From assembly GCA_038213375.1 (NCBI GenBank), contig JBBQTB010000015.1, positions 385 to 64,384 on the forward strand: a stretch of 64,000 bases of DNA. Reading direction: 5' to 3'. The notes below the pieces were generated by a model that searched no databases, was not told the DNA's origin, and was given only the letters and a program-made list of their open reading frames with translations. Positions 7,019-64,000 of this stretch are shown here, piece after piece. Position 1 is the first letter of the stretch. Every line of letters starts with the position of its first letter. Origin of the DNA: Bacteroidales bacterium. GTDB lineage: Bacteria > Bacteroidota > Bacteroidia > Bacteroidales > JAAUTT01. The translations under genes were made by a program, and so were the position numbers.

Positions 7019-7022
7019 TGCT

Positions 7023-7227: not shown

Positions 7228-7365
7228 ACCCCAACCCCTTGAAAAGGAGCTATAACAGTTTCTTACAATTCTGAAATACTTTGTAAACAACAGAAGAAAT
7301 TGTAGAGAAGAAGATAATAGCAGATAAGTAGCATATAGTTATTGCCTTTTCAAGGGATTGGGGTT
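7228..7365. repeat. Gene-less inverted pair of the CCCCAACCCCTTGAAAAGG..ATAAC repeat family
   Basis: ACCCCAACCCCTTGAAAAGGAGCTATAACAG (7228-7258) and its near reverse complement GTTATTGCCTTTTCAAGGGATTGGGGT (7338-7364) flank about 80 bp. Confidence 0.7.
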
Positions 7366-7398
7366 CAGGAATTATTCAATATAATTAATCAATGTAGC

Positions 7399-8310
7399 AT
7401 GAAAATAAAACTTCGGGTTTTAATTCTCTGTGGATTAATATTAATTGCCTGTACTGGTGTTGCACAGGAGTTAAAATGCAATATTCAAGTACTTTCCGAT
7501 AAAGTTCAGGGAACTAATAAGAAAGTATTTGAAACGATGCAGAATGCCATTTACGAATTTATGAATAATCGGAGTTGGACAAATCATGTGTATACCAATG
7601 AGGAGCGAATAGAATGTAATTTACTCTTTAATATTCAGGATTATACGGGTTCCGATTTTAAAGGTACTCTTCAGGTACAGGCACGCAGGCCGGTTTTTAA
7701 TTCTTCGTATAACACAGTGCTTCTTAATTACATGGACCAGAATATTCAGTTTACGTACGTTGAATTTCAATCACTGGAATTTAATGAATCGTCATTTACC
7801 TCAAATTTGACCTCTCTTTTAGCCTATTACGCTTATGTAATTATTGGTTTGGATTATGATTCATACTCAAATAAGGGAGGATCAGACATACTCCGAAAAG
7901 CCGAAACTATAGTAAACAATGCTCAAAATGCTTCGGAAAAAGGATGGAAACCCTTTGAGGGTAGCAGTAATAAAAATAGGTATTGGCTGGTTCAAAATTT
8001 GATGGATGATAAATATAGTCCTGTTCGCGACTTTTTTTATAAATACCATCGGTTGGGTTTGGATCGGTTAGCAGAAAAACCAATTGAAGGAAGAGACGAG
8101 ATAGCTGAGGATTTAAGGTTGTTGCAGCAAGTTTACCGAAATAAACCCGACCCTTATATGCATTTAATGCAGGTGGTTTTTGATGCAAAAAGTGATGAAT
8201 GGGTAAATGTTTTTTCAGACTCGTTTCCTGAAGAACGCACTAGAGTTCTTGCTGTTTTGAAAGAAATTGATCCTGCGAATGCCACTAAATATCAGAAAAT
8301 TGCGAAATAG
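7399..8310 (+). CDS. DUF4835-family secreted protein (family annotated in some genomes as T9SS-associated PorD)
   Basis: Track ORF 7342-8310. The start is moved to 7399 (MKIKLRVLILCGLILIACTGVAQ signal peptide) because the upstream codons lie in the repeat. Conserved position between coaBC and recN. Confidence 0.75.
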   Translation: MKIKLRVLILCGLILIACTGVAQELKCNIQVLSDKVQGTNKKVFETMQNAIYEFMNNRSWTNHVYTNEERIECNLLFNIQDYTGSDFKGTLQVQARRPVFNSSYNTVLLNYMDQNIQFTYVEFQSLEFNESSFTSNLTSLLAYYAYVIIGLDYDSYSNKGGSDILRKAETIVNNAQNASEKGWKPFEGSSNKNRYWLVQNLMDDKYSPVRDFFYKYHRLGLDRLAEKPIEGRDEIAEDLRLLQQVYRNKPDPYMHLMQVVFDAKSDEWVNVFSDSFPEERTRVLAVLKEIDPANATKYQKIAK

Positions 8311-8352
8311 TTTTTTATCTTTGTTTTTCGAACAGATGAAAACTGAGTTTGC

Positions 8353-10011
8353 ATGTTAACAACCCTAACAATTCAAAATTACGCTCTTATTCAGGAATTA
8401 AACATCGATTTTTCCGCTGGCTTGTCAATTATCACCGGCGAAACAGGCGCTGGCAAATCAATTCTTCTGGGAGCATTATCACTTTTGGTAGGTCAGCGTG
8501 CCGACACAACTGTTCTTCTCGATCAATCCCGTAAATGCATTGTTGAAGGTACATTTCATATCAATGGATACGGACTTGAAGATATTTTTGTTCAATATGA
8601 TCTTGATTTTGATGATATTTCTGTTATTCGGCGGGAGATCAGTCCTGATGGTAAGTCGAGAGCTTTTGTAAATGATTCACCTGTTAATTTAACGGTTCTC
8701 AGAGATCTTGGCGAACGGTTAATTGATATTCATTCCCAGCATCAAAATCAGTACCTCGAAAACCCACAATTTCAGTTAAAAGTACTGGATACTTTTGCCC
8801 GAAATTCCATTTTATTACAAAAATATCGGGAAACCTACACTTTACACCGCGCATTAAAAAGTGAATATCAGAACACTTCCGAAATGGTTTCCAAAAACAA
8901 AGCCGATCTGGATTATTTTCAGTTTCAATTTGATCAGTTAAACCTTGCTAAACTGATTGTTGACGAGTTTGATTCTCTCGAACAGGAACTTAAATTCCTA
9001 ACACATTCCGAAGAAATTAAATCTTCGCTGTTAGGGGTGTCAAACTGCATGTCGGGCGAATCTAATTCAGTAATTTTATTAATCAAAGATTCACTTGCAT
9101 TATTTAATAGAATTAAAGGATTTTATCCTCCGGCCATTGAACTACAAAACAGGTTAGATAGCGTATTCGTAGAAATTAAAGATATTGCCCACGAAACAGA
9201 AAACTTTTGTGAGCATATTGATCATGATCCGGTTCGGGTTGATTTTGTAAAACAACGTCTTGATTTAATTTATTCGTTGTTTCAAAAGCATCATAGTGGG
9301 AGTGTGGCTGATCTAATTGGTATTAGAGATAATTTTAAAAAGAAAATTGACGAAATATCAAATGTCGATTTTCGGCTGGAAGAATTGAAAAAAGAAATTG
9401 ATATGGTTCGGTCAAGCCTTGAAAACATTTCCAATGCTATTTCCTCTGAACGCAGAAATGTAATTCCTTCGATAGAAAATAAAGTGCTTGAATTGGTCAA
9501 ACAGCTTGGTATACCCAATGGTTTGTTTAAGATAGAGATGACAACAACCGACGACTTTACATCCAATGGCACTGACAGAGTGAGATTTTTGTTCTCAGCA
9601 AATAAGCAAGGTGTTTTACAGGAATTGGCAAGAGTCGCTTCGGGCGGTGAAATGGCAAGACTTATGCTAAGTATCAAGGCCACTATTTCTGATGAGATCA
9701 CCTTGCCAACCATCATTTTTGATGAAATCGATGCAGGTGTTTCTGGCGATATTGCTGATAAAATGGGGAATGTCATTTTTCATATGTCTGAGAATGCTCA
9801 GATTATTAATATAACCCATCTTCCACAAATAGCCAGTAAAGGACAAAATCATTATTTTGTGTATAAGGTTGATTTGGACGATAAAACACATACAAGCATT
9901 AAAAAATTGAAATCTGATGAACGCGTTATTGAAATAGCTAGGATGTTAAGTGGAGAACAACTTTCGGATGCTGCCATCAATAATGCAAAAGCACTTTTGG
10001 GTGTTGAATGA
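8353..10011 (+). CDS. recN: DNA repair protein RecN
   Basis: 552 aa. SMC-like with Walker A GETGAGKS, long coiled coil and C-terminal signature SGGE...IFDEIDAG. Confidence 0.95.
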   Translation: MLTTLTIQNYALIQELNIDFSAGLSIITGETGAGKSILLGALSLLVGQRADTTVLLDQSRKCIVEGTFHINGYGLEDIFVQYDLDFDDISVIRREISPDGKSRAFVNDSPVNLTVLRDLGERLIDIHSQHQNQYLENPQFQLKVLDTFARNSILLQKYRETYTLHRALKSEYQNTSEMVSKNKADLDYFQFQFDQLNLAKLIVDEFDSLEQELKFLTHSEEIKSSLLGVSNCMSGESNSVILLIKDSLALFNRIKGFYPPAIELQNRLDSVFVEIKDIAHETENFCEHIDHDPVRVDFVKQRLDLIYSLFQKHHSGSVADLIGIRDNFKKKIDEISNVDFRLEELKKEIDMVRSSLENISNAISSERRNVIPSIENKVLELVKQLGIPNGLFKIEMTTTDDFTSNGTDRVRFLFSANKQGVLQELARVASGGEMARLMLSIKATISDEITLPTIIFDEIDAGVSGDIADKMGNVIFHMSENAQIINITHLPQIASKGQNHYFVYKVDLDDKTHTSIKKLKSDERVIEIARMLSGEQLSDAAINNAKALLGVE

Positions 10012-10090
10012 AACTTTTTCATTAAAGCGGTGTTTGAATAAAGTTATCAATTTGAGGCTGTGAAAATCTAAAATCTAAAATCAGAAAAGA

Positions 10091-10936
10091 ATGTCGTACA
10101 ATTTATTAAAGGGTAAACGTGGTTTAATTTTTGGGGCTTTAAATGAGATGTCGATTGCCTGGAAAGTTGCTGAAAAGGCACATGAAGAAGGCGCAATATT
10201 TACATTATCAAATACTCCCGTGGCTATGCGTTTGGGAGAAGTTGATCAATTGGCTACCAAATGTGCCACTATTGTAATACCTGCTGATGCCACCAGTGTT
10301 GCCGATTTGGAAAAGCTCATATCAAAATCAGTAGAACATTTAGGAGGAAAGTTGGATTTTATTCTTCATTCTATTGGTATGTCCCCCAATGTTCGTAAGG
10401 GAATTCCTTATGATGATATTAATTATGAAAATTTTTTAAAGACGTTGGATATTTCGGCTCTTTCGTTTCACAAAGTACTTCAGGTTGCACGAAAACAAGA
10501 TGCAATTAACGAATGGGGTTCTGTGGTAGCTTTATCCTATGTTGCCGCGCAGCGCACTCTTGATAGTTACAATGATATGGCCGATGCAAAGGCATTGTTG
10601 GAATCGATCGCACGCAGTTTTGGATATATATATGGTAACGAAAAAAATGTACGGATCAATACTATTTCTCAATCGCCAACCATTACTACCGCGGGAAGTG
10701 GAGTGAAAGGTATTGAAACATTGATTGATTTTACCGAACGGATGTCTCCTTTAGGGAATGCCACAGCAGAGGAGTGTGCCGATTACTGTATAGCACTCTT
10801 TTCCGATCTTACACGCAAAGTGACCATGCAGAATTTATTCCATGATGGAGGCTTCTCCAGCATGGGTATGAGTAAAAAGGCTTTAAATCAATACGATAAA
10901 AGCTTTAAACCGTGTCCGGAAAAGGGAGAGAAATAA
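10091..10936 (+). CDS. fabI: Enoyl-[acyl-carrier-protein] reductase (FabI-type SDR)
   Basis: 281 aa. The LLKGKRGLIFG start, the HSIG motif and the overall FabI layout. Confidence 0.85.
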   Translation: MSYNLLKGKRGLIFGALNEMSIAWKVAEKAHEEGAIFTLSNTPVAMRLGEVDQLATKCATIVIPADATSVADLEKLISKSVEHLGGKLDFILHSIGMSPNVRKGIPYDDINYENFLKTLDISALSFHKVLQVARKQDAINEWGSVVALSYVAAQRTLDSYNDMADAKALLESIARSFGYIYGNEKNVRINTISQSPTITTAGSGVKGIETLIDFTERMSPLGNATAEECADYCIALFSDLTRKVTMQNLFHDGGFSSMGMSKKALNQYDKSFKPCPEKGEK

Positions 10937-10950
10937 GATTGAAAAAGGTT

Positions 10951-10989
10951 GCAAAAGCTGACAGGTTTTAATAACCTGTCAGCTTTTGC
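10951..10989 (+). terminator. 17-bp perfect hairpin downstream of fabI
   Basis: GCAAAAGCTGACAGGTT-TTAAT-AACCTGTCAGCTTTTGC, 15 nt after the fabI stop. Shares the CTGACAGGTT core with the 7.05/7.11 kb hairpins. Confidence 0.7.
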
Positions 10990-11044
10990 ATTGGTATTAA
11001 TGCAGAAAAAATCAAGTTAGTATCTATAACTAAGTAATTTGAAA

Positions 11045-11269
11045 TCATTTCTTAACTCCCTTAAGAAATTTATCCTCATTAGTATGCCACCAATCCTGAT
11101 TAATCTGTTCCGCTATACACAAAATATCAGAATTAAATCTTGACTTTTGAGCCAAATTCTCAATCTGTAAAAGTTTTACGAGCGAAATCAAATAATCATC
11201 ATCAAATCCTATTTTGTTGTGTTTTAGAATTATTTGATTTCCCTTAATTTCTATAACTAAGTTTTCCAA
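11045..11269 (-). CDS. Hypothetical small protein (74 aa)
   Basis: Isolated ORF with no recognisable motif. A 20-bp perfect palindrome lies 19 nt upstream of its ATG. Confidence 0.45.
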   Translation of the reverse strand: MENLVIEIKGNQIILKHNKIGFDDDYLISLVKLLQIENLAQKSRFNSDILCIAEQINQDWWHTNEDKFLKGVKK

Positions 11270-11287
11270 ACCAATAGTTTTTACAAA

Positions 11288-11307
11288 TTTACTGTATATA
11301 CAGTAAA
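11288..11307. promoter_or_regulatory. Candidate operator: 20-bp perfect palindrome TTTACTGTATATACAGTAAA
   Basis: Exact dyad symmetry, directly upstream of the 11269 start. Confidence 0.4.
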
Positions 11308-11738
11308 AAATTCAAGCTAAACAAATCATGTTGCTAAGTGTATATATTCAACATGTTACAAACCACAGCGCGTAATTTTCAACTATTGAGTCTTGATTCT
11401 TCATTATTCATATTCATTCTTCTTTACTTAATCTTCCAATTTATAATTAAGTACATGATCATAATTATGTTAGTTTATTTTTACTAAGGGGGTAGTTTTA
11501 AATATTGAATTGAATAAATATTGCATTATATTTGAGATTCTCATTAAAAATAAGGAGGGGGTGTGTTGAAAAAATGACATTTATCAGGGTTTTAACTTAA
11601 AATTTACTACCCATTTATAAAAAATGGGATAAAATTTAAAATACCCCCTTAAATTTAATTGTAGATTGAATATTTTTTTCTACTTTGCACCCGAATAATT
11701 ATTATGTACTATTTTTATAAACCTAAATTTCAAATTCT

Positions 11739-14700
11739 ATGAAAAGACTTGCAATGTTTCTTGCATTCTTTGTGCTTGTAGGGCTGCATCTTACTATGGC
11801 GCAAACGGTGCAAATTAAGGGTTTGGTTACCAGCTCCGAGGACGGGCAACCATTACCTGGCGCTTCGATAACAGTCAAAGGCACAACAATTGGAAGCGTA
11901 ACTGATTTTCAGGGAAAATATACTCTTTCAGTTCCATCCACTGCTCAATTATTGGTGTTTAGCTTCGTGGGGATGAAAACCCAGGAAGTTGCCATTAGCG
12001 GGCGGACAATAATTGATGCCATTATTGAACCTTCAGTAGTTGGATTGGAGGAGGTTGTGGTAACGGCGTTGGGTATTACAAGGGAAAAAAAATCTCTTGG
12101 TTATACAGTACAAGACGTTAAATCAGAGGAATTAAATCAAACTAGAACAGGAAACGTAGTTACATCTCTATCGGGCAAAGTTGCCGGTGTAAGCATTACA
12201 TCTGCAACGGGTAATATGGGAGGTTCAACACGTATCACTATTCGTGGTGTAAGATCCATTAGTGGTAATAATGAACCATTGTTTGTTGTTGATGGTGTTC
12301 CTCTTGATAACTCAAGTTTTAATACTTTAGATACTCAGCGCGGAGCAGGTGGTTATGATTATGGTAGTACATCCGGAGACATTAATCCGGACGATGTAGA
12401 ATCCGTTTCAGTATTAAAGGGACCTAGTGCTGCTTCATTGTATGGTTCACGTGCTGCTAATGGTGTCATTCTTATTACTACAAAAAAAGGGAAAGTTGGA
12501 AAAGAAAAAATTGGTGTTGAAGTGAATTCTTCGGTGGCTTTTGAACAAGTTGCTCTCCTTCCTAAATATCAAAATCTTTATGGTGGAGGTTCAATTCAAT
12601 CAGATACTCCTGAAGGGTTTGGAATAGCTACCATTAATGGAACTGATTTTTTAATTCCAGATTATGCGACAGACGAAAGTTTTGGACCTAAATATAATTC
12701 GAATTTCCAGGTTTTACAATCGCACAATTTATTCGATTGGGAAGCAAATGGCAAACAAGGATTACCAAGTACTAGCCCATGGGTAGCGCCGGCGCATGAT
12801 GTAAAAGACTTCTTTGAAACTGGAGTTGCTTACACAAACAATGTTGCAGTTGCGGGTGGTGACGAAAAATCAAGTTTTCGGCTTGCATATACAAATTACG
12901 ATTTAAAAGGATATATGCCTAATTCAAAAATGTCGAGAAATAGCATTAATTTTAATGGGGATACAAAACTCGGTTCTAAATTAAAGGCATTTACCTCTGT
13001 TAATTATGTTAATTCTGCTGCTACCGGGCGCCCTTCTACCGGGTATGATGATAACAACGTGATGCAGAAGTTTAACCAATGGGGTCAACGTCAATTGGAC
13101 ATGGAAATCATGAAAAATTATGTGAATCCTGATGGTACTCAACGTGCATGGAATCGCAATGCTTGGGATGATCCAACACCTGCATATTCTGATAACCCAT
13201 ACTGGACTCGTTACCGAAACTATCAAAATGATAGTCGTAATCGGTTTTATGGAAATGTTGGTTTGCAATATAGTGTTACTTCATGGTTAAGCCTTCAAGG
13301 TAAAGTGAATGCAGACTATTATAATAACAGGGAAGCTGAGCGCGTTGCCGTTGGTTCACAAGCACTTTCTCAATTCTATGAAGGGAAACGCGAATTCTTA
13401 GAAACCAATATGGATTTTTTAGCTACGGCTAAACAAAAATTTACTGACAATATTGATTTTACCGCTACCATTGGAGGTAGTCAAATGCACCGTAAAAAAA
13501 CAATCAATAGGGAACAAACTATTGGTGGCCTTGTGATTCCAGATTTATATATTTTAACAAATTCAGTTTCAAAGCCAAACATTATTAACGATTTAACACA
13601 AGAAAGACAAATAAACGGCATTTATGGAACTGTCAATTTTGGTTTCTACAACATGGTTTATTTGGATGCTTCTTTGCGTAATGACTGGTCATCTACTTTA
13701 GCTAAGGGAAAGAATTCATACATGTATCCTTCTGTAACTGGCAGTTTCTTGTTAAATGAACTTACTCCTTTGAAGGAAATTTCCTGGTTAAACCTTGGAA
13801 AGATTCGCGCTGGTTGGGCTCAGGCCGGTAATGACTCAGATCCTTATTCTGATAAAAAATATTACGGGTATGTAAGTAATTTTGGAAGCGATGCAATGTA
13901 TCGTGTGCCAAATACCTTACATAATCCTGAACTTAAATCAGAAATGACAACGTCTTTTGAAGTAGGAACTGACTTGCTTTTCTTTAACAAACGTATTGGA
14001 TTTAGTTTCACTTATTATAACGAAAAGACTACCGATCAAATTCTTTCGGTCGCTATTTCTGGGGCATCAGGTTATGGATTTAAAACGATAAATGCCGGTG
14101 AAATTACGAATAAGGGAATAGAAGCAACCTTGAATCTTACTCCAATCTTAACAAAGGATTTTTCTTGGGAAATTGCTGTAAATTTTACACATAATAAAAA
14201 TCAGGTTGTTAGTTTAGCCGATGGAATTAGTGTTTATCAATTGACGACTGGGCCTTTCAATGTCTCTGTTAATGCTGAAACCGGTAAAGCATATGGCTCA
14301 CTCATCGGTAGAGACTATGTTTACAAAGATGGTAATAAAATAGTTGCCGCCGAAAATGTTACGGCAAAAGGTAAATATTTGAATGGGCCTGTTCAATCTT
14401 TGGGAACTGTTATGCCCGATTATTTAGCTGGGATTTGGAATACTTTCAAGTTTAAGGGTTTTGAAGTAGCTGCATTAATTGATATCCGCCGAGGTGGTAA
14501 ATTATTTTCTACTACCAATATGTGGGGTACATATACTGGTATTCTGGAAGAAACTGCTGCAACCAATGCGAACGGAAAGAATGTTCGTGACGCTGTTGCT
14601 GATGGTGGTGGACATTTAAGTGCTGGAATATATGGTATTGCAAATGCTGATGGTTCTGTTTCATACACAGATAAGAATGGTAATCCAAGTGACGTGCCGG

Positions 14701-53830: not shown

Positions 53831-54223
53831 ATGAACGAACATATAAGTGAATTTTGTGTGCGAGACTACGAGTTGGATTTGCAGGGGATTGTGAACAACG
53901 CTAATTACCAGCATTATCTGGAACATGCCCGGCATGAATATTTATGCACGATGAATATCGATTTTGCTAAACTACATGATGAAGGCAAAGACCTGATGGT
54001 GACACGAGTTGAGATTGACTATAAATATCCGTTGAAAAGCCGCGATAAGTTTAAAGTGATAAGCTTAATGCATAAAGAAGGAAACTTGCGGATTGTTTTT
54101 GATCAGCATATCCTGCGAATACCTGATGGGAAAGTTATTATTAAGGCCAGGGTGATAGGCGTTTGTTTGTTAAATGGTCGACCAACTAAACCCGAATCTG
54201 TAATCGATTTGATTCATTTATAG
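53831..54223 (+). CDS. Acyl-CoA thioesterase (4HBT/YbgC hotdog fold)
   Basis: 130 aa with VRDYELDLQGIVNNANYQHYLEHAR, the typical YbgC-like N-terminus with catalytic Asp. Confidence 0.85.
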   Translation: MNEHISEFCVRDYELDLQGIVNNANYQHYLEHARHEYLCTMNIDFAKLHDEGKDLMVTRVEIDYKYPLKSRDKFKVISLMHKEGNLRIVFDQHILRIPDGKVIIKARVIGVCLLNGRPTKPESVIDLIHL

Positions 54224-54247: not shown

Positions 54248-54483
54248 ATGAGAGAAAATATAAAAAAACAATTTGGGTTATTGCCCGGGAATATAACCAA
54301 CAACGTAAGGAGCTAATTACATGCTTCGACGATTTCTATGGATTTCAGTTACTTGCTACGAAGGATTCCCCAAAACATCAAACAATACTTGATGTGGGCG
54401 CAGGTACTGGATTTTTAACATCATTGATTTACCAGATATTTCCTGAATCGCAGTATACTTTGATTGACTTATCACCTGAAATG
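54248..54483 (+). pseudogene. Class I SAM-dependent methyltransferase, N-terminal fragment (frameshifted, truncated)
   Basis: MRENIKKQFG.. shifts frame to ..IAREYNQQRKELITCFDDFYGFQLLATKDSPKHQTILDVGAGTGFLTSLIYQIFPESQYTLIDLSPEM. Similarity to methyltransferases ends at about 54483. Confidence 0.6.
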
Positions 54484-54602
54484 ACTTTTCAGGACAACAA
54501 CGGTTTGATGGAGTGGCGAATATTGCACAACATCCCTGCTGCATGGCACCTCGTTCTATTTTACCGCGCCGCCTGTTTCTTGTTAAATACGGATTGACTT
54601 TG

Positions 54603-54755
54603 CTTGCTGCGCAAATGTCGTTACAAATGACAATTAGAAAGGCACGGATTACAAATCCGAGCCAGCATGGGGGCTTACATGCGGGGGGGTACTCTCCATC
54701 GGTGAGAGGTGAAAGGAACAAAGTAGACGTTAGATGGCTAAAAGGTGAAAGGAAC
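54603..54755. repeat. Structured repeat copy A (3' of fic) plus 13-nt direct repeat
   Basis: CTTGCTGCGCAAATGTCGT-TACAA-ATGAC..GAAAGGCA-CGGATT-ACA-AATCCG..GGGGCTTACATGCGGG. AGGTGAAAGGAAC occurs at 54707-19 and 54743-55. Confidence 0.6.
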
Positions 54756-54779: not shown

Positions 54780-55877
54780 CTATTCTTTTGCGTGATACCT
54801 AACTCCCCGTCCTTCGCCTGTTTTTAGCAATATACCTTCTCTGACCAGATAAGCAAGGTCTTTTTTTAATGTATTCCGAGAGTAATCTTTTAATTGACTT
54901 TCAAGTTCTCCAACTTGTATTGTTTTCTGTTCTTTAATGTATGCTAAAACAACTTGCTGACGCTCATTTAATACCGTTTTTAGCTTGCTGTAAGTTTCAT
55001 ATTTTGCATCAAGCTTTTGGGTTAATATAATCAGACATTCTAAAAAAAACAGTATCCAACTATCAATACGCTCAATTTCTTTGCCCCGATTCTTCTGACC
55101 TTCCATCAACGCCCTGTAATATTCTTCTTTCTTGGTTTCTATTACATTTTCAAAGGATACATACTGGATGAATTTGTAATCCTGCTTCATCAGCAATAGA
55201 GAAGTCAAAAGCCTTGACAAACGTCCGTTTCCGTCTTGGTACGGATGGATTGACAAAAACTCGTAAATAAACGCCGCTGTTATCATTAACGGGTGTAAAT
55301 CATTCTTTGCAAGCCTTTCGTTTGTCCATTCGATTAAACCCAGCATCTCATTGGGCGTTAAATGTGGTTCCGTTGTCCTAAATATTGTTCGCTGTGTGCC
55401 ATTTGGATAATTGGCCACTACTTGGTTAGAAAGGTTTTTGTATTTTCCTTTGTGAGCCTGGTCTTTGTTGCTATATTTTAAAAGAATGCCGTGCATTTGA
55501 TGGATGTAACGTTCCTCTAAAGCAATATCGACGTAACTGTCTAAAATGATTTCTAATGCTTCATAATAGCCCACCACTTCTTGTTCGTCCCGGCTTTGCA
55601 GCTTGGTTATTTTAACAGATTTCAAAAGCTTTTCTACTTCTTCATCGGTAAGTGTTGCCCCTTCAATACGGGTCGAAGAACCGATACTTTCTATCGTGGC
55701 TATTTTCCTGAGATCTTTCAAGTATTTGCTTTGTTGTCTTTCAATTGCTTTCCAGTTGCCTTTAAAGGTGTCTACCACGCTAAGTTGTTGGCTTATTTGT
55801 TGATAAACTGTACTGTTAAAGTCCAGTTTTATCTTCATATTATTAGGTATATCCATTTTGTATCCAATTTTATCCAA
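54780..55877 (-). CDS. Fic-family protein (AMPylase-type) with C-terminal wHTH
   Basis: 365 aa with the Fic motif HPYQDGNGRLSRLL. The C-terminal DNA-binding-like domain ends GEGRGVRYHAKE. Confidence 0.9.
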   Translation of the reverse strand: MDKIGYKMDIPNNMKIKLDFNSTVYQQISQQLSVVDTFKGNWKAIERQQSKYLKDLRKIATIESIGSSTRIEGATLTDEEVEKLLKSVKITKLQSRDEQEVVGYYEALEIILDSYVDIALEERYIHQMHGILLKYSNKDQAHKGKYKNLSNQVVANYPNGTQRTIFRTTEPHLTPNEMLGLIEWTNERLAKNDLHPLMITAAFIYEFLSIHPYQDGNGRLSRLLTSLLLMKQDYKFIQYVSFENVIETKKEEYYRALMEGQKNRGKEIERIDSWILFFLECLIILTQKLDAKYETYSKLKTVLNERQQVVLAYIKEQKTIQVGELESQLKDYSRNTLKKDLAYLVREGILLKTGEGRGVRYHAKE

Positions 55878-55914: not shown

Positions 55915-56186
55915 ATATTTTTGTATTCCCGCCTTCAGCTCCTCTATTCCAGTCTGCCGTTATTTCTCAGTGCTTCCGGTGTATTTATGCCCGGGAAAAA
56001 GCTGCACCAGACCTAATTCATGGCCAGATTTTAAAAGGTTGGCGATGACCGATTGACGGATGGTTGTGGTATTCAAATTCATGTCGGGGAACAAGTGTAG
56101 AGCGCTTTCCAGTAAATAACTAATTCCTTCGCCTTTTTACGGTGGCCCGGATTTGGTAATTATTAAACTGTCGGTTTCGACAATTG
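55915..56186 (-). pseudogene. 3' fragment of a tyrosine recombinase gene (paralog of 59709-60572)
   Basis: The DNA aligns along its length with 59725-60000 (e.g. CCTTCAGCTCCTCTAT, CTTCCGGTGTATTTATGCCCGG, GATTTTAAAAGGTT.GCGATGACCGATTGACGGAT, ATTAAACTGTCGGTTTCGAC). The rest of the gene is missing. Confidence 0.8.
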
Positions 56187-56508: not shown

Positions 56509-56961
56509 CTATAAAAAAATTCTTGCTGCGCAAATGTCGTTACAAACGACTGTAAAGAAAGGAACGCGATGCAATCGCGCTCCACCAGCTCGGCCGAACA
56601 TGCGCGCTAGCTGGGGAAGGAATTGACCTGTTGCTTTTACAGAACTCGCTTCTGCTGCATTAACTGCTCTAAATACAGTAGTCCCCGTATTAGCGGCAAC
56701 ACTATTGCTTACTCCAAAAAATATATTACCTGATGATACAATAACATTTTGCCTAACAACAAAAATACCAGTAGTAATCTTAGGTATATCTTCCTGTTCA
56801 ACTATATTATTATGAAAACCCTTATAGCTATGATGTGATTGGCCATAGAATATTGAATTTGCTGATACAGGTACGACTATTGAAGACATACAAAGAAGTA
56901 TTGAAATAATGATAATCACTATTTCAATACTTTTCCTAATATGTTCTATTATGTGTTTCAT
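56509..56961 (-). pseudogene. Chimeric ORF: TM/secreted N-part fused to a truncated orphan toxin-domain start, running into repeat copy B
   Basis: ...NTGTTVFRAVNAAEASSVKATGQF parallels ...[23 protein letters not shown] of the upstream toxin. The last about 35 codons are read from the repeat sequence. Confidence 0.4.
56522..56616. repeat. Structured repeat copy B (3' of toxin/immunity module)
   Basis: CTTGCTGCGCAAATGTCGT-TACAA-ACGAC..GAAAGGAA-CGCGAT-GCA-ATCGCG..CCAGCT-CGGCCGAACATGCGCGCT-AGCTGG. Confidence 0.6.
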
Positions 56962-56974
56962 CTAATTACCTTTA

Positions 56975-57286
56975 TTAAAAAGCAGTAATTATTTTAATGT
57001 CCCCTATTGGTTCAGGTCCTCTTAAAACTTCATATGTTTGATTTAGCTGAATAAGTTTTTTCACTTCCTCAATAAGCATAAACGATAATTTAGCGTTAAA
57101 AGGCTTGTCATAACTTGCTTCTCTAGTTTCATCAATTTTATAAATGAAACTAAATTGTCTTTCTCCAATTTTCATAAAGAGCCAATTAACTTTATCATCC
57201 TTTGGATGCTTATAAGAATTCAAAATATTACTTCTTTTTATTATCAATTCACCAGTAAAATGAAATTCTCTGTCAGTGGATATCAT
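56975..57286 (-). CDS. Putative immunity protein for the upstream toxin tip
   Basis: 103-aa cytoplasmic ORF, 9 nt downstream of the toxin ORF. The call is by position only. Confidence 0.5.
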   Translation of the reverse strand: MISTDREFHFTGELIIKRSNILNSYKHPKDDKVNWLFMKIGERQFSFIYKIDETREASYDKPFNAKLSFMLIEEVKKLIQLNQTYEVLRGPEPIGDIKIITAF

Positions 57287-57294
57287 AGTTTAAT

Positions 57295-57999
57295 TTATTT
57301 AGGGATAATATATGGAAGGACTTCTTGAGGAAAAGCATAAGCTCCAATATCGACATTCGGGTACCAAAACTTGTTAATATTAAGTGGTCCTTTTACGGTA
57401 GCTTCTATGACTTTATATCCATCTTTATACAGCCACTGTCCATATTGATGAGCATCTTCAACAGATTTAGCAAAATATTTAAGCCCAATATCTTGACCTT
57501 CTAAAGAAAATCTACCAGTACTATTAATAACAGCCTCCTCGGTTGCATTTACAGCTCTATAAATTGTTTGCCCCCCTGCGTTAGCGGCATTAGCAGCTTC
57601 GCCAACTTTTGCTAATTTATCCAATCCTTTCGTGCCAGCAACCGCTAAGCCAACTTGGGTAATAACTTCCCCTGTGAGTTCTCCTGCTTTTCCTCCAGTC
57701 TTATCATCTTTGGCTTCTTGAATAGTGTTTTTTACACTTTGTTTTATATTGTTATAAGCCTGTTTAGGATTTGTAGCAGCTACAGCAAGTCCAATTTTGA
57801 ATTGACTGGCAGGCGATGGGTCTAACATTTGAGCCACGCCTACCGCAGTATTCACAACTCCGTTGACTACTCCCTTTCCAACACCCTTTAGAAAATCAAT
57901 CCAGTCATTTCCATCTGGGTCGATAAAACGCATTGGATTATCAATTGCATAAACGTACGGACTCCATCTTCTGGACTTCTCTGCTAATCGGTCGACACT
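57295..57999 (-). CDS. Orphan RHS/YD-type polymorphic toxin C-terminal tip (no RHS core upstream)
   Basis: The open frame from 57999 reads [33 protein letters not shown], the conserved end of the RHS core (..SPY.Y..NNP..fiDPDG). A variable about 200-aa toxin domain follows. The track ORF starts at Met 57933. Confidence 0.7.
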
Positions 58000-58172
58000 C
58001 TAAAACCACTGCACACTATTTTTCCATCAGTTCAGGGCTCTACACGGTATTCAAAGAACATTAATTGTTTCATATACAGTTTAAAGATATAGTTTTTTTT
58101 CTTTCATTTGAACTTTTCATTTGAAAGAAAAAAAGGCTAGCGCGTTTTGGGGATGGGACGATAAAATAAAAA

Positions 58173-58254
58173 CGGCGCATAATAGCCATTAAACGCCATA
58201 CCTACGGGATTTTTGGGGATCCCTTCACCACGGCGTTTACTTTTCATTATGCGC
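58173..58254. other. Three-tier perfect hairpin (82 nt)
   Basis: GGCGCATAAT (58173-82) pairs with ATTATGCGCC (58245-54), TAAACGCC (58189-96) with GGCGTTTA (58231-38), and GGGAT (58205-09) with ATCCC (58218-22). Confidence 0.6.
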
Positions 58255-58381
58255 CATTAAAAATTGCTCCGAAGTTTTATAAATAATTAATTTATAGATT
58301 ATTGTTTCAAATAAAGGATTCTGATGAAAAGGCTCTATTGAAAAGAAAAAAAATAGCACGAGAGCGATATATTATCCTTTG

Positions 58382-58925
58382 TCACGGGTGAAGGGACGGT
58401 TGGAAAAAGGTTGGTGTAAAGATGAAGTAAACCCGTCCGTTCAGACGTGATGAAGGTGCCGGGGTTTGGGGGTGGATTAGAGCCACCAATTAAAAAAGCT
58501 TTTTTAAAAACTGTCACAGATAAAAAACAATGTGTAAAAGTGGGTAACTGTGAGTCGTTGTGAGCCGTAAGCGAGTGTGGCCGGGGGCTTGCAAAAGGGA
58601 ACATGAAGGATTGAGTGTTCTTTTGCAAGTCCCGCACGCGGCAAAGGGCCGTAACAACTTTAATAAATACACAACCTACCGGCCCTGCAGCCCCGGCCAC
58701 CCGTAGGCGAGCCAAACATGGGCAGCATCCGGGCCGTAAGCGTTGCCGTTAAGTTACGGTTATGTTGCTGTGGGCTTTGTGGCAATGCTTACGGAACGGG
58801 GGGCGCTGCCATGAGGAGGCGGAAGGAACGCTAAAGGCATGACGGCCTTGCCCTTGTTTGTAACTGTAAGTAAATAAGAGCTGTAAAAAGGGCAACCCAA
58901 CGGGCGGTACAGCTTATTTTTTAAC
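58382..58925 (+). ncRNA. Candidate large structured RNA (or ori/ssi-type DNA structure) of the element; strand tentative
   Basis: ORF-free and locally very GC-rich (43 of 60 bases G/C in 58681-58740). At least 7 nested stems. Two G-T pairs are tolerated only as G-U on the + strand. See findings. Confidence 0.4.
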
Positions 58926-58970
58926 CCTTAAAAATAAACATAAAAAAATGGGCTGTGCCGGGCTGGCGTG

Positions 58971-59068
58971 GCTTTTGCTGACGACTGAGGACGAATACCG
59001 CTTTTCCGACGTGCGTGTAAGGAGCTGTCGGTATTTATGGGGCTTACATGCGGGTGGAGGTCTCTTTC
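58971..59068. repeat. Structured repeat copy C (3' of ORF6N gene), with internal deletion
   Basis: CTTTTGCTG-ACGACTG..GAATACCG-(loop)-CGGTATT-TATGGGGCTTACATGCGGG. Abuts the ORF6N stop codon. Confidence 0.5.
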
Positions 59069-59626
59069 TTAACTCTCCTGTTTCGGGGGCTTAAAACCTA
59101 TTTTGGGGCGTTGTTTTTGTTCGAGTTCCTGTTGCTTGGATTTCTCAAATTGCTTCAGGTATTCAAATACCAATAAAATTCTGTCTTCATGGTCACTTAC
59201 CTGATTCTTTATCCGTTCTATCTCCAATAACACATCTTTATGGGTCATCAACATTTCACGCATCCTATTAAAAATACGGACTATTTGGATGTTTACATGT
59301 ATTGCCCGGTCACTGTTCAGTATGCTTGCAAGCATTACTGCGCCATGCTCGGTAAAAACATACGGCAAATATGGAGAGAACTTAAGCTTTTTAAGGTGGT
59401 CGCAATTTGCGACCACCTGATCTTTCTCTTGTTCAGTCAATTGGAACATAAAATCTTCAGGAAAGCGTTTAACATTACGTTTAACTTGTTCATTGAGCCT
59501 CTTTGTGGTTACTCCGTATAATTCAGCCAAATCACTATCAATCATAACTTTTAAATCCCTAACAAGTAGTATTTTACTCATTATTAATTCATCCGGGATT
59601 GCAATGTTTTTTATTGGCTCAGTCAT
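59069..59626 (-). CDS. ORF6N-domain (KilA-N-like DNA-binding) protein
   Basis: 185 aa: ILLVRDLKVMIDSDLAELYGVTTKRLNEQVKRNVKRFPEDFMFQLT...FTEHGAVMLASIL is the ORF6N signature. Confidence 0.85.
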   Translation of the reverse strand: MTEPIKNIAIPDELIMSKILLVRDLKVMIDSDLAELYGVTTKRLNEQVKRNVKRFPEDFMFQLTEQEKDQVVANCDHLKKLKFSPYLPYVFTEHGAVMLASILNSDRAIHVNIQIVRIFNRMREMLMTHKDVLLEIERIKNQVSDHEDRILLVFEYLKQFEKSKQQELEQKQRPKIGFKPPKQES

Positions 59627-59708
59627 ATTTAATTGTTTTACAGTTACAAAACTATTATTTTTTTCTTTGGTTTTGTTTTTAAGGTCACAATTTACAACCT
59701 TAAAACTT

Positions 59709-60572
59709 TCATTTCAATGGATGATACTTATTAATTCCGGCCTTCAGCTCCTCTATCCCCGTCTGCCTGTATTTCTCCGTACTTCCGGTGTATTTATGCC
59801 CGGCAAAGACCTGCACCAACCGTAAGTCATGGCCGGATTTTAAAAGGTTAGCGATGACCGATTGACGGATAGTTTTTGTATTTAAATTTCGGCCGGGGAA
59901 CAGGTATTGTGCTGTTTCCAGCAGGTAGCTGATGCCTTCTCCATTTTCAGGTGTTCCGGATTTGGTAAGTATTAAACTGTCGGTTTCGACTGTCTTTAAT
60001 TTCTGTCGGATGTTATGAATATACTTGTAAATTAACATGATCTGGTTTGGTCTTAATTTCAACGTCCGGCTGTTGGTCTTGGTGTCGGGTTTTATGTAGA
60101 TTGTTCCGGCTTCCAGATCAATATCTTTTAAGGTTAAACTTACGATGTCATTTCTGGTTAAGCCTTGGTAAATGAGTAAACTTATGATTGCCTGGTTCTT
60201 TATCTTCACATCTTTGTAGCGTTCTTTGCGTTCCATCAGCAGTTCCAGTTCTTCGGGTTTAAACAGGTCTTGTATTTGTATGTCCCTACTGGTTTTGTCC
60301 TTTAATTGGAGGTTGCGGCAGGGGTGGTCGTTGCGCTGCCCGGTGTGGTTGAGCCAGTAATAATATTTCTTGATGGCATGTATAATGACTTTTATTGTTT
60401 GGGGGTTGCTGTATTTCTTTCGCAATGTCCCCACGTAGTCCATTATATCACTGTAGGTTGCTGATTGTGCTTTTTGCTGGGTGATTGCTTCGAAGAAGTT
60501 TTCTATATCCCTGTAATAGCGGGATGCGGTGCTTTTTGTATGCCTTTTTTGTAAATACTCTTTTAGGTTCAT
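59709..60572 (-). CDS. Tyrosine-type recombinase/integrase (second of tandem pair)
   Basis: 287 aa with catalytic-region residues GLTRND, TIRQSVIANLL, AGHKY and EKYRQ. Its ATG overlaps the upstream integrase stop (ATGA). Confidence 0.9.
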   Translation of the reverse strand: MNLKEYLQKRHTKSTASRYYRDIENFFEAITQQKAQSATYSDIMDYVGTLRKKYSNPQTIKVIIHAIKKYYYWLNHTGQRNDHPCRNLQLKDKTSRDIQIQDLFKPEELELLMERKERYKDVKIKNQAIISLLIYQGLTRNDIVSLTLKDIDLEAGTIYIKPDTKTNSRTLKLRPNQIMLIYKYIHNIRQKLKTVETDSLILTKSGTPENGEGISYLLETAQYLFPGRNLNTKTIRQSVIANLLKSGHDLRLVQVFAGHKYTGSTEKYRQTGIEELKAGINKYHPLK

Positions 60573-61542: not shown

Positions 61543-64000
61543 TTAAAGTTCATCGAGTTGGTTTTGCAGGTATTGTTTTATCTTGTTCCTGAGCGCTTTG
61601 ATGTTGTCCCAATACGTTATCTTATAGGTAAAACCACGATTTATAAAACCTCCCGATTGACTTATGTATTCAAGCTCCAATAAATCATTTAAATAGCGTT
61701 GCAATTGGCTTTTGCTAATGTTTAATGCCTGGCGTATTTCCCGTTGGGTAAACTTATAATTCTGGTATTCATTTCCCTGCTTCGTTATAAAAGCCTTCAA
61801 ATCCTCGTAAAACTGCCGTAGGCTGCCGTCCAGCTCGTCTATTTTCAGGATGATGCTCTCGAACATGATTTCGATGGCCGTTTGTATATCTTCCTTTTCG
61901 GTGATTAACCGTCCGTGATGGTCTCGCTTGCGTTGGTATTGGTTTAGGAGCGTGATTTGGTTGATGAAGGCGTGGTAAAGCTCTGTGAGTCGCCGTATTT
62001 TATGGGCTTCGGGTGGCAACAGTATTTTGTTGGCAAAAGGGTTGATGACCTCGTAAGGTTTTAGCATGCGGATACAGTTTTGGATAAATGCCTTTGTTTC
62101 CCGTTCTTCTGCTTTATTAATGCCCCCGGCGGCTCGCCGGTTCTGGTAATTTATAATCCGGTTGGTTTGGGCTTTGCTTTCATCCACGGCCAGTAAAAAA
62201 ATACGGCTCATGTTGTCTTCGTAAATTTCGCCACGGGTGGTGGTGGCGATGCTGCCGATGGGGCCGCGTACCCGTTTTATCTGCGCCCGTATTTGTCCGC
62301 TGCCTTCGTCCTTGGTGCTGGTGGAGCTGATGATCTCGCCATTGCTCTGCAGTTCACGAAAAGCAAATTCGGCTTCTTCTTTCAGGCCGTCAACATCTTC
62401 CAATGCGATGAGTTTGTGCTGTATTTCGTATTCGCCATAATTATAAAAACTACTTTCGGTAACGCGTGTAAGCCGTATCACGTCTTCCTTAGGCATTAAA
62501 TCGGTAATTTGTCGAGATAGATACGTTTTGCCACTTCCGCTACTGCCCTGTATTAGAGCGTGTAACGTGTCGGGCATTTTGTAACTGGTGGCTATTACAA
62601 ACAAAAATATGCGGTTGTTTTCTTCGCCTGTGATCCCTGCTTTTTCTATCTGCTGGTTAAACATTTTTATCAGGTTCTTTTGGTTCAAAAAGCTCAAACA
62701 CCTTTGCTGTTCGGAGATGGGGACAATAACTTTTTCATTCTTTTCTATCGGTTCGCTTTCTTTTATTTGCTGTTCTCTATGGCTATCAAGTAAATCGGTT
62801 AGACGGCTTAAATCTAATTCGATTAAATCAGCCCGTATTCCTAATTTTTCTCCAGCTTCCTTTGCTACTTTTTCCACTTGCTTATCTTCATACAGGTCGG
62901 GTTTGGTGCGGCTTTTTCGGCCTGTTGCGATGTTTTCTATTTCCAGGGTGATTTTCAGGCTGTCCATGGCTTTGGGGATGCCGCCTTTGATATGGTAAAT
63001 GGCGGTTTCGGTTGCGTAGGTTATTTTGTATGGATTGGTGGTATTTAGCTGTTGAGACACCATGCGTGGTGTCTGTATTGTACTGATTGGCTGTTGTCCT
63101 GCTGCTGTTTTTTCTTTTTCACCTGAACTGCTTTCTGTTGAAAAAGAAAAAGGCTTGCCCTGAGCAGGGTCGAAGGGCTTTCTATTGTTTAATAATTCTG
63201 TAAATATTCCCGGCTCATGCCCGGTTGATAAGCTATTAATGTCTTCGCCTTCGGGAGTTTCTACATAACTGATTTTTATTCCCGCTATTATTTCCCTTAA
63301 CTCGCCAGCCCTGGCATTTGCCCCTGTCCTTCCGGCTTCGTCACCATCAAAAAAGAAGATAATTTCTTCTAAATCTTTTAGTTCTTTGATGGCTTGTTTG
63401 TGTTCGTCGGTGATGCCGTTGGTCCCATAGCTTGCAAGTAGCTCGTAATTTTTTGTTATTCCCGAGATTTGTTGTAAACTGGCTGTGTCAATGATGCTTT
63501 CGGTAATGATTAGTTTGGTTGTTTCCGGTTTGGGATAACTTGGGTAAAGCCCTTTGCGGTTTAGGGTGTAGTAATGGCGGGCGTTATCTTTGTCCTTGAT
63601 ACTTCGCCCGTAGAGGGAAACGATTTTATTTTGTTTGTCCCTCAAACCGAAGGTGATGCAGCCTCGCAAATAATTGAAACGGCTTTCTTTAAAGGCATTG
63701 TAGCCTATTTGCAAGGTTTTCCAGTTTAGGTTGCGGCTTTCGGCGTATTCCCTTGCGGTGCTGCTGCTTAAAAAGCTGCTTTGCATTTGCTCAAAGTTAG
63801 CTTGGTAGTTTTGTATAGTTTCTGTTTTGGGTGTGGTTTGTGGCTTGTCATCTCTTGCTTGGCCTTCTGCAAGTTGGGTCAGGTATATCAAAGCTTCATG
63901 GGTGGTTATGTTTTTGTATTTTTCGGTAAGGCTTACGATGTCCATTGTGCCGGCTGTGCAGTTGCTGCTAAAACAGGTGCAGATGTTTTTCTCACGGCTA
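61543..64000 (-). CDS. CHC2-zinc-finger/Toprim DNA primase fused to a P-loop NTPase; N-terminus off the right edge
   Basis: The frame stays open upstream of Met 63945 to base 64000 (..SREKNICTCFSSNCTAGTMDIV.. is the CHC2 finger). Toprim motif (IITESIIDT...FFFDGDEAGR) and Walker A GSSGSGKT. Confidence 0.85.
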   Translation of the reverse strand, partial: SREKNICTCFSSNCTAGTMDIVSLTEKYKNITTHEALIYLTQLAEGQARDDKPQTTPKTETIQNYQANFEQMQSSFLSSSTAREYAESRNLNWKTLQIGYNAFKESRFNYLRGCITFGLRDKQNKIVSLYGRSIKDKDNARHYYTLNRKGLYPSYPKPETTKLIITESIIDTASLQQISGITKNYELLASYGTNGITDEHKQAIKELKDLEEIIFFFDGDEAGRTGANARAGELREIIAGIKISYVETPEGEDINSLSTGHEPGIFTELLNNRKPFDPAQGKPFSFSTESSSGEKEKTAAGQQPISTIQTPRMVSQQLNTTNPYKITYATETAIYHIKGGIPKAMDSLKITLEIENIATGRKSRTKPDLYEDKQVEKVAKEAGEKLGIRADLIELDLSRLTDLLDSHREQQIKESEPIEKNEKVIVPISEQQRCLSFLNQKNLIKMFNQQIEKAGITGEENNRIFLFVIATSYKMPDTLHALIQGSSGSGKTYLSRQITDLMPKEDVIRLTRVTESSFYNYGEYEIQHKLIALEDVDGLKEEAEFAFRELQSNGEIISSTSTKDEGSGQIRAQIKRVRGPIGSIATTTRGEIYEDNMSRIFLLAVDESKAQTNRIINYQNRRAAGGINKAEERETKAFIQNCIRMLKPYEVINPFANKILLPPEAHKIRRLTELYHAFINQITLLNQYQRKRDHHGRLITEKEDIQTAIEIMFESIILKIDELDGSLRQFYEDLKAFITKQGNEYQNYKFTQREIRQALNISKSQLQRYLNDLLELEYISQSGGFINRGFTYKITYWDNIKALRNKIKQYLQNQLDEL

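Follow-up and report, generated by a model that had tools for sequence, protein, structure and literature searches.

What is encoded by a GC-rich stretch of about half a kilobase that has no credible open reading frame (ORF) and lies inside an apparently mobile element of a Bacteroidales bacterium? The stretch occupies positions 58382-58925 of a 64,000-nucleotide (nt) segment of contig JBBQTB010000015.1 (GenBank assembly GCA_038213375.1), termed the window here, and lies between genes for a primase-NTPase and two tyrosine recombinases on one side and an orphan toxin tip of an Rhs gene on the other. An earlier note on this DNA proposed either a large noncoding RNA (ncRNA) or a cis-acting element for replication or transfer. 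The computational analysis described here favors an RNA: the segment from 58374 to approximately 58985, read on the plus strand, has about an even chance of being the gene for a previously undescribed structured ncRNA of approximately 0.6 kb that likely acts in trans. The large-ncRNA reading is supported by conservation, by compensatory covariation in four helices, by asymmetry that favors the plus strand and by the lack of any match in Rfam. The strand, the transcript ends and the function of the RNA are all inferred from sequence.

The stretch is set apart by its composition. GC content between 58382 and 58925 is 50.6% versus 37.9% for the whole window, a level equaled by 0.3% of 544-nt windows, and the maximum for windows of this size falls at 58540, making the region the GC-richest stretch of the window. 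At its core, 43 of the 60 positions between 58681 and 58740 are G or C, exactly as the earlier note had counted, and the putative RNA strand is rich in G (167 G versus 108 C, with a GC skew of up to +0.4). All seven stems that the note had read from this region are present at their coordinates, as found by direct reading of the sequence and by string location on the plus strand:

58382-86 with 58446-50 (+): stem TCACG / CGTGA
58394-99 with 58433-38 (+): stem GGACGG / CCGTCC
58577-86 with 58691-700 (+): stem GTGGCCGGGG / CCCCGGCCAC
58588-97 with 58620-29 (+): stem CTTGCAAAAG / CTTTTGCAAG
58645-51 with 58680-86 (+): stem AGGGCCG / CGGCCCT
58734-47 with 58781-94 (+): 14-bp stem that includes a G-T pair
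58848-55 with 58888-95 (+): stem TTGCCCTT / AAGGGCAA

When the single sequence is folded, the plus strand has a minimum free energy of -210.8 kcal/mol (z = -3.9 versus shuffles), and the minus strand also beats its own shuffles (z = -4.0). Because both strands do so, single-sequence folding shows an excess of pairing and leaves the strand undecided.

Eight homologous loci were recovered from at least five independent assemblies or studies: L002 from NCBI (GCA_038245465.1); L003, L006, L007 and L008 from ENA; L005 and L010 from JGI; and L009 from Logan. One further JGI contig was matched without its DNA being available. The homologues were reached with a spurious minus-strand ORF of the region as protein query, a profile built from the first matches and a metagenome scan; such a query works since RNA genes of high GC content are often annotated with ORFs by gene callers. 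Each locus holds one copy of the RNA by nhmmer. Nucleotide identity of the noncoding block among homologues is 73-85%, so the region passes the test of conservation beyond a single strain. By comparison, the neighboring proteins share 39-55% (primase), 30-43% (IntA, with one pair at 73%) and 31-46% (IntB) amino-acid identity, and the RNA block is thus more constrained than any protein of the element. Within the block, invariant segments alternate with hairpin tips that vary in sequence and length.

None of the homologues carries an intact protein gene at this position. The single long ORF in the window, of 126 amino acids (aa) on the minus strand, has no Pfam match, and its frame is not kept among homologues, in agreement with the view that the stretch contains no credible ORF. 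Codon periodicity is absent from the homologue alignment (variable columns by phase, 56/64/52), indels are mostly of 1-2 nt, no reading frame is conserved, and the minus-strand pseudo-ORFs lie in a frame that differs from homologue to homologue.

The fold was examined in two nine-sequence alignments, A4 and A6, of which A6 is the core alignment, with RNAalifold used for the consensus structure. RNAalifold predicts 111-115 pairs. The region delimited earlier (58382-58925) is real, but the conserved fold is longer, running from 58374 to approximately 58985, and its parts are as follows:

58374..58985 (+): whole conserved structured unit of approximately 0.61 kb, the proposed ncRNA gene, defined by alignments A4 and A6
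58374..58457 (+): P1, a long irregular hairpin in the 5ʹ domain, with outer stem ATCCTTTGTCACGG / CGTGATGAAGGT and inner stem GGGACGG / CCGTCC
58466..58489 (+): P2, a short hairpin with the conserved loop GGATTAGAG, from the alignment and RNAalifold
58490..58561 (+): A/U-rich linker, variable in sequence and length, in which 58492-58505 form the palindrome AAAAAAGCTTTTTT
58562..58713 (+): central domain, closed by the long-range helix P3 (58562-58587 / 58691-58713), which encloses P4 and P6
58588-58629 (+): P4, with the invariant 11-nt loop TGAAGGATTGA at 58604-58614
58630-58644 (+): invariant joining strand TCCCGCnnGCGGCAA between P4 and P6
58645-58686 (+): P6, with a variable loop and, at its base, a pair that switches between A-U and G-C
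58721..58810 (+): long hairpin P7-P8, formed by GGCAGC / GCTGCC, TCCG / CGGG and then the 14-bp stem listed above
58846..58897 (+): P9, a hairpin with the invariant stem CCTTGCCCTT / AAGGGCAACC and a variable loop
58903..58985 (+): 3ʹ tail, with GGCGGTACAGC, a T-run at 58914-58922, an A-run and the invariant GGGCTGTGCCGGGCTGGCGTGGCTTTTGC

In A6, 96% of cells form standard pairs, and in 13 pairs both partners change. Out of 500 column shuffles, none reaches the observed paired fraction, number of double changes or covariation score, and pairing falls to 39-49% in slid controls, in which the 3ʹ partners are moved by one to three columns. Covariation, which had been suggested as a check on the fold, is evident across the eight homologues as compensatory changes in four helices (P1, distal P4, P6 and P8). 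In P1, the homologues, which are of four sequence types, share the same hairpin, with eight pairs showing compensatory changes. Three of the four pairs in the distal part of P4 covary, and proximal P4 and P3 are invariant. The P7-P8 hairpin comprises 22 pairs, five of them with compensatory changes, and 98-99% of its cells are paired. Additionally, L006, L007 and L010 have a G-C pair where P2 of the window shows a G-A mismatch. The linker that follows P2 carries an insertion of approximately 50 nt in L009.

Besides TCCCGCnnGCGGCAA and TGAAGGATTGA, GAACGGGGGG forms another invariant strand. A ACTGTAAGT-like motif occurs in the P9 loop and, in similar form, in the P1 and P8 loops of many homologues; GGATT(A)GA is common to two loops. 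The 3ʹ tail can pair as a hairpin (ACAGCTTATTTTTT / AAAAAAATGGGCTGT) that is invariant and has no covariation support. Two other pairings were rejected: that of the 5ʹ strand of P1 with the P4 loop, which is not kept in L007 and L010, and a mini-helix CCC/GGG proposed by RNAalifold around 58631-58648, which competes with P6, the helix that holds the covariation. The sequence CCGTA(A/G)GCG, described earlier as occurring three times, does so, although two of the starts were off by one (58701 and 58734 are correct) and conservation does not extend to the third copy. The other two copies form the opposite strands of P3, and the sequence was rejected as a repeated motif in its own right. No second copy of the RNA exists inside the window, where a 19-bp motif at one edge of the noncoding block is all that recurs.

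A separate observation concerns the P9 loop, in which the 13-nt sequence TTTGTAACTGTAA (58857-58869, plus strand) is identical to one at 59638-59650 (minus strand), just upstream of the start codon of a neighboring ORF6N-domain gene. In L007 and L010, P1 is preceded by related TAAGTTATA motifs. These may represent a shared protein-binding or promoter-like motif, or chance.

The plus strand is quite probably the one that folds. The alignment folding energy is -210.9 for the plus strand versus -185.2 for the minus strand. Moreover, the plus-strand structure contains 97 G-U versus 9 A-C cells, with 21 pairs that mix Watson-Crick (WC) and G-U forms and 6 that mix WC and A-C, whereas a structure derived de novo for the minus strand has 41 G-U versus 20 A-C cells and 8 versus 9 mixed pairs. 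The earlier note had already assigned the fold to the plus strand, and this is borne out by the G-U/A-C asymmetry and the alignment folding energy, not by single-sequence folding. If the plus strand is taken, the unit is antisense to every neighboring gene and convergent with the integrase operon. The 5ʹ end of the transcript, as inferred from the base of P1, would be near 58374, and the 3ʹ end would lie between the T-run at 58914-58922 and approximately 58985. Upstream of P1, L005 and L008 have a sigma-70-like TTGACA-N17-AATAAT, which is not relied on here. The weak terminator-like hairpin that had been noted at the end of the region has a stem (58880-58914) found in this window only. A conserved hairpin is present on the other strand, upstream of the 5ʹ end of the RNA:

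58171..58258 (-): terminator-like hairpin GGCGCATAAT ... ATTATGCGCC, with inner stem AAACGCC/GGCGTTT, followed by a T-run

This hairpin occurs in L002, L005 (where its center is deleted), L008 and L009 and is absent from L007 and L010.

The failure of the earlier note to match the region to known RNA families was upheld by scans against Rfam 15. At gathering scores, the sole match in the 64-kb window is a tRNA at 1579-1652; between 57900 and 59200, matches up to E = 10 are noise of 16-19 bits outside the core; and the RNA region of the eight homologous loci yields nothing up to E = 5. Models including GOLLD, ROOL, HEARO, OLE, raiA, STAXI, RNase P, tmRNA, 6S, SRP and riboswitches do not match the region. 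By these comparisons, the predicted RNA is a new family. Searches with blastn of 58100-59070 against plasmid and phage collections gave no match, an exact-pattern scan of viral contigs gave nothing, and a primase-based scan of viral contigs found distant phage primases (24-32% identity) without the RNA. An exhaustive profile search with the pseudo-ORFs against 1.84 billion representative proteins returned no new members; three long extra profile matches were rejected as WD40 proteins with a chance match to AFNPSGTLL, a peptide encoded by the P4 palindrome. Furthermore, a literature search for any RNA connected with tyrosine recombinases, with Rhs loci or with elements of Bacteroidota gave nothing relevant beyond rAID-1, a recombinase-associated locus discussed below. 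The putative RNA family is real but rare.

In the proposed mechanism, the RNA would be transcribed from the plus strand, antisense to and just downstream of the integrase operon, and would act as a folded molecule in its own right, most likely in trans. It might serve as a scaffold or decoy for a conserved protein of the host or the element. A protein-binding role is proposed because of the extreme conservation, the invariant loops TGAAGGATTGA and GGATTAGAG and the presence of the ACTGTAAGT-like motif in three hairpin loops, and, as the RNA is conserved across divergent element backbones, its partner may be one that varies independently of the element. The RNA would stand alone, since no plus-strand gene lies downstream; a riboswitch or 5ʹ leader was rejected on the same ground, the neighbors all being on the minus strand.

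Several findings weigh against a plus-strand trans-acting RNA. The comparative set consists of nine sequences in approximately five lineages, and pairing in P3, proximal P4, P7, P9 and the 3ʹ tail, which are invariant, is neither supported nor contradicted by it. Within the covarying helices only, the strand asymmetry is modest (16 G-U versus 5 A-C cells). The Bacteroidota-type promoter TAnnTTTG was not found upstream of P1, and the 3ʹ end lacks a conserved, canonical intrinsic terminator; the hairpin and T-run at 58171-58258 would suit a minus-strand transcript that crosses the region. The family is rare: a 20-nt sequence shared without change by all nine copies had one chance match, in Roseateles, among 185,579 species-representative genomes. 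Finally, only loop motifs point to a protein scaffold.

The setting of the RNA bears on what it might do. On the minus strand, the order of features is primase-NTPase, IntA, IntB, an ORF6N-domain gene, a noncoding block of approximately 1 kb (59057-58002) that contains the RNA, the orphan Rhs tip and a candidate immunity gene. Beyond the immunity gene lies a degenerate second unit and then, from approximately 54500, the chromosome.

61543..63945 (-): DnaG-type primase with P-loop NTPase and winged helix; its start and the left end of the element lie beyond the end of the window, and a database copy (P0016) has 861 aa
60569..61453 (-): IntA, a Xer-like tyrosine recombinase with canonical catalytic residues
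59709..60572 (-): IntB, a second tyrosine-recombinase paralogue with IRQS instead of LRHS in box II
59069..59626 (-): accessory gene with an ORF6N domain, found in this window only, where it separates IntB from the RNA block
59039..59057 (no strand): 19-bp motif GGGGCTTACATGCGGGTGG (also written GGGGCTTACATGCGGG) at the integrase-side edge of the conserved noncoding block
58093..58134 (no strand): A/T palindrome TTTTTTTTCTTTCATTTGAAC TT TTCATTTGAAAGAAAAAAA, with a related copy inside the primase gene at 63107-63158
58002..58090 (no strand): conserved element end ATGTTCTTTGAA ... GTGCAGTGG, directly after which Rhs core fragments start
57295..57999 (-): orphan Rhs toxin tip, consisting of a short core fragment that ends in a DPxG motif and then the tip
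56975-57286 (-): candidate immunity gene that follows the orphan Rhs tip

Comparison of these elements shows the predicted RNA to be an optional, horizontally exchanged module. The primase family has at least 2,460 proteins, with names from Rufibacter, Cytophagaceae, Flavobacteriales and Bacteroidales. In the element of Rufibacter quisquiliarum, whose primase is 50% identical to that of the window, the architecture and the Rhs junction are the same, and the gap of approximately 450 nt between IntB and Rhs contains no homologue of the RNA. Similarity of the RNA and of the proteins is also incongruent: the window and L002 have the most similar noncoding blocks (85%; approximately 80% over the whole 1 kb) and the most divergent proteins (31-39%). 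The RNA-less Rufibacter element and this incongruence indicate that the RNA is an exchangeable accessory module and not core recombination or replication machinery. Occupants of the position after IntB vary as well, with ORF6N in the full unit of the window (it is missing at the corresponding position in L002, L005, L008 and L010) and a Fic gene in the degenerate unit, and the position downstream of IntB is therefore best regarded as a cargo slot of which the RNA is one occupant. In L007 and L010, an unrelated small gene on the 5ʹ side of the RNA takes the place of the palindromes and the Rhs fragment.

The A/T palindromes belong to the element rather than to the RNA. They have the form TTTTTTTCTTTCAxxTGAA ... 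TTCAxxTGAAAGAAAAAAA and occur twice per element, 4.5-5 kb apart (6221/10723 in L002 and 3682/8213 in L005; a site in L089 spans 11040-11087). The copy at the noncoding end is also present in L002, L005 and L008, and the intragenic copy, which encodes a primase linker F-S-F-S-T-E...E-K-E-K, is found in the window, L002, L005 and Rufibacter. The twofold arrangement recalls the ori/crr pair of phage P4. As a part of the element backbone, the palindrome is a better candidate for an origin than the GC-rich region.

This bears directly on the other possibility raised at the outset, that the region acts in cis in replication, as a pre-primer of the kind of ColE1 RNA II or as an origin activator that opens the duplex or forms an R-loop for the primase-NTPase. 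The element does encode a DnaG-type primase fused to an NTPase, the strand is G-rich, as noted above, with a length near that of RNA II, the DNA just 3ʹ of the T-run is invariant, and the palindrome that is repeated inside the primase gene lies approximately 250 nt away. However, transcription would point away from that palindrome, L007 and L010 have the RNA without adjoining palindromes, and the Rufibacter sister element keeps its primase and the intragenic palindrome without the RNA. The RNA and primase similarities are incongruent, unlike those of a co-evolving origin-initiator pair. Replication or primase loading in cis is accordingly disfavored and, overall, unlikely, given the sister element that lacks the region and the better origin candidate at 58093-58134. 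A shade less probable is a transcript of the opposite strand, in which the region would be a structured 3ʹ untranslated or intergenic part of the integrase operon and would serve processing, stability, termination or insulation ahead of the Rhs cargo. All flanking genes are on the minus strand, which itself folds better than its shuffles (z = -4.0); a conserved hairpin and T-run lie on that strand just beyond the region, and no plus-strand promoter was recognized upstream of P1. Against this, the G-U/A-C asymmetry and the alignment folding energy favor the plus strand, positions that alternate between G-U and G-C or A-U would be broken C-A pairs on the minus strand, and L007 and L010 do without the terminator-like hairpin.

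An improbable reading is that the sequence functions as folded single-stranded DNA, either a priming site of the ssi or sso type or a substrate for Xer-like recombination comparable to attC or the attP of CTX phage. Such a site would account for the strand-specific pairing, the adjoining primase and pair of Xer-like or integron-like tyrosine recombinases and the resemblance of the locus to integron-like toxin/immunity cassette arrays, but not easily for a length of approximately 600 nt, for junctions of several helices or for long unpaired segments that are invariant; known attC, attP and ssi sites are all far smaller. Moreover, there is one copy per unit and not one per cassette, sister elements that lack the RNA retain both recombinases, the conserved G-T wobbles are more typical of RNA, and no single-stranded stage is expected since the element loci have no gene for a relaxase or a rolling-circle Rep. 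It is very doubtful that the RNA is a cofactor of IntA and IntB that guides or scaffolds the choice of site in integration or in the capture of Rhs tip and immunity cassettes. Although the RNA adjoins IntB in nine of nine loci, IntB is atypical (IRQS in box II; the first arginine missing in three of five copies) and Rhs fragments join the element end at varying points of the core, the RNA lies on the strand opposite the recombinase genes, and its variable loops are not consistently complementary to the element ends, the flanks or mRNAs. The Rufibacter element has the same IntA/IntB pair and Rhs junction without the RNA, and similarity of the RNA does not track that of the recombinases. Marginally less credible again is a working partnership between the RNA and the two recombinases, in which it would scaffold or direct the capture and exchange of Rhs cassettes or the integration of the element. 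If true, this would be the first RNA-assisted tyrosine-recombinase system; no tyrosine recombinase is known to be guided by RNA. A decayed protein gene, or an array of binding sites in double-stranded DNA such as att arms or operators, is effectively refuted. Gene callers do predict minus-strand ORFs of 120-162 aa in most homologues, yet the frames differ between homologues, indels are of 1-2 nt, third positions show no bias and the profile search returned the same pseudo-ORFs plus chance WD40 matches only; long-range compensatory changes and strand asymmetry would be unexpected of duplex binding sites.

A structured, trans-acting RNA encoded on the plus strand, the preferred explanation, would join a small group. 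Bacterial structured RNAs longer than approximately 400 nt are few, the main examples being OLE, GOLLD, ROOL, HEARO and the group I and group II introns. Several turned out to hold unexpected biochemistry: HEARO functions as a guide RNA, and large assemblies have been reported for ROOL and GOLLD. Like ROOL, GOLLD, HEARO, OLE and raiA, the candidate is several hundred nt long and has many helices, with invariant unpaired segments and variable hairpin tips; like the large orphan RNAs among them, it is carried on mobile DNA, is GC-rich in an AT-rich host and has no assigned function. Unlike them, it is found in another host phylum, on a primase and dual-tyrosine-recombinase element inside Rhs loci, is much rarer and shows no association with tRNA or phage. 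The predicted transcript also resembles ColE1 RNA II in being a folded, G-rich RNA of approximately 0.55 kb near replication functions on a small replicon-like element. However, the element here encodes a primase-NTPase, whereas ColE1 needs no initiator of its own and carries the antisense RNA I; no antisense partner is evident, sister elements exist without the RNA, and there is no similarity in sequence or model. RNAI-related Rfam models did not match the region or the eight loci.

With integron attC sites and the attP of CTX phage, the locus shares strand-specific pairing, adjoining Xer-like or integron-like recombinases and the storage of cassettes. Those sites are approximately 60-150 nt long, with one attC per cassette, whereas the region here measures approximately 600 nt, has complex junctions and occurs once per unit. 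An attC-type site in the strict sense (a palindrome of 57-141 nt for each cassette) was rejected, as the multi-helix fold of approximately 600 nt is present in one copy and is not repeated after the Rhs cassettes. The bridge RNA of IS110 and the omega RNA of TnpB/IscB are likewise ncRNAs in the noncoding end of a mobile element beside a recombinase. Unlike these RNAs, which are on the same strand as the enzyme gene and contiguous with it and have loops complementary to target or donor, the RNA here is on the opposite strand, and no complementarity was found. A guide RNA was rejected because the longest matches of RNA segments to their cognate loci are 10-14 nt, lie in inconsistent places and do not recur between loci. 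Other candidates were set aside as well. For a group II intron, neither Intron_gpII nor group-II-D1D4 matches and no locus has a reverse-transcriptase ORF; GAGCCGTAAGCG resembles the start of domain V superficially only and pairs long-range in P3. ARAGORN finds no tRNA or tmRNA genes between 54000 and 64000. A host gene for the RNA that serves as integration target is too rare to be likely, and in L002 the RNA lies inside the repeat-bounded unit described below.

The candidate RNA is notable for an unusually strong constraint (73-85% identity in DNA versus 30-55% in the proteins), a clear multi-domain fold and a defined genetic setting, namely an optional place for cargo in small Bacteroidota elements that have a primase and two integrases and move spare Rhs tips and immunity genes around. 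Since the RNA can be missing, elements that carry it can be compared directly with those that do not. The family seems rare and environmental, which may limit its general importance. The host elements form a second, independent lead as apparent mobile carriers of Rhs tip and immunity cassettes, close in concept to rAID-1.

In the rAID-1 systems of gut Bacteroidales, arrays of orphan immunity genes lie behind the gene for a XerD-like recombinase (10.1101/471110; 10.1101/2025.05.03.651265). No RNA has been described for rAID-1. The unit studied here is similar in its Bacteroidota host and in having tyrosine recombinase genes, a noncoding stretch, co-oriented low-GC orphan tip and immunity genes and repeated intergenic sequences. 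In the window, the Rhs tip, the immunity candidate and ORF150 are co-oriented and have 26-38% GC, sequences repeat at 56522-56550 and 54603-54631, and the window has blocks in common with L002 and L005; the locus thus has one hallmark of rAID-1, namely two or more genes downstream, in one orientation and with no more than 41% GC, with motifs repeated between them. Unlike rAID-1, it has two recombinases, a primase and a helix-turn-helix (HTH) gene in a discrete unit of approximately 7.7 kb. It appears to be a mobile vehicle for spare toxin tips of Rhs and for immunity genes, rAID-1-like in concept.

The layout of HTH gene, primase, IntA, IntB, RNA and cargo recurs in L002, L005, L008, L010 and one JGI contig, flanked on the left by a full Rhs gene with its immunity gene and on the right by an Rhs core fragment, tip and immunity gene. 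Units are inserted beside full-length Rhs genes of the DUF6443 type, in some cases in tandem. In L002, a 22-bp direct repeat TTTAAAGTGCAGC(G/A)ATATTTTT brackets a unit of approximately 7.7 kb (4618-12319) that includes the RNA and the orphan tip, its two copies lying at the HTH gene's 3ʹ end and after the orphan immunity gene; this bracket places the RNA inside a small integrative element that carries an Rhs tip and immunity cargo. Many database contigs with this primase are only 5-9 kb long, and one (P0039), of 4.6 kb, ends inside IntB. The recombinase that defines rAID-1 is XerD-like and at least 44% identical to BF9343_RS08045; the scores of IntA and IntB are Xer-like and fall short of every NCBIfam cut-off. 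Box II of IntB reads IRQS in all five copies, and the three copies in which the first catalytic arginine is missing are those of L005, L010 and Rufibacter. Just outside the 22-bp repeat of L002 (4618), at the HTH end, a PIN-domain toxin-antitoxin pair (4043-4607) lies between the repeat and the immunity gene of the upstream Rhs. Cargo hot spots of this kind (the PIN pair in L002; ORF6N and Fic in the window) are consistent with the RNA being accessory cargo.

At the other end of the noncoding block, the Rhs core starts after GTGCAGTGG with NKYLYNGKE in L002, YDPQI in L008 and DPLAEK in the window and L005; these differing points indicate that the junction is at no fixed site of the rhs gene. 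The junctions lie at 58002-58014 in the window and at approximately 10850, 8330 and 3520 in L002, L005 and L008, respectively. Rufibacter carries a similar end, GTTCTcTGAA ... GTGGCGCAGCGG.

The degenerate second unit of the window contains a copy of the 3ʹ end of IntB (55915-56181, 82% identical to 59724-59990) and next a gene of the Fic/DOC type (54780-55877). The 19-bp motif has its second copy here, at 54670-54688, joined directly to a repeat whose counterpart in the full unit is found past the Rhs tip and immunity genes (copies at 54603-54631 and 56522-56550), which suggests deletion or recombination adjoining the motif. A SusC/SusD pair is also encoded in the window and marks the host as a member of Bacteroidota. 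Toward the chromosome, a thioesterase gene (53831-54223) stands just before a truncated, frameshifted gene for an S-adenosylmethionine (SAM)-dependent methyltransferase (54249-54560, with DVGAGTG at approximately 54390-54410), which marks the junction of chromosome and island.

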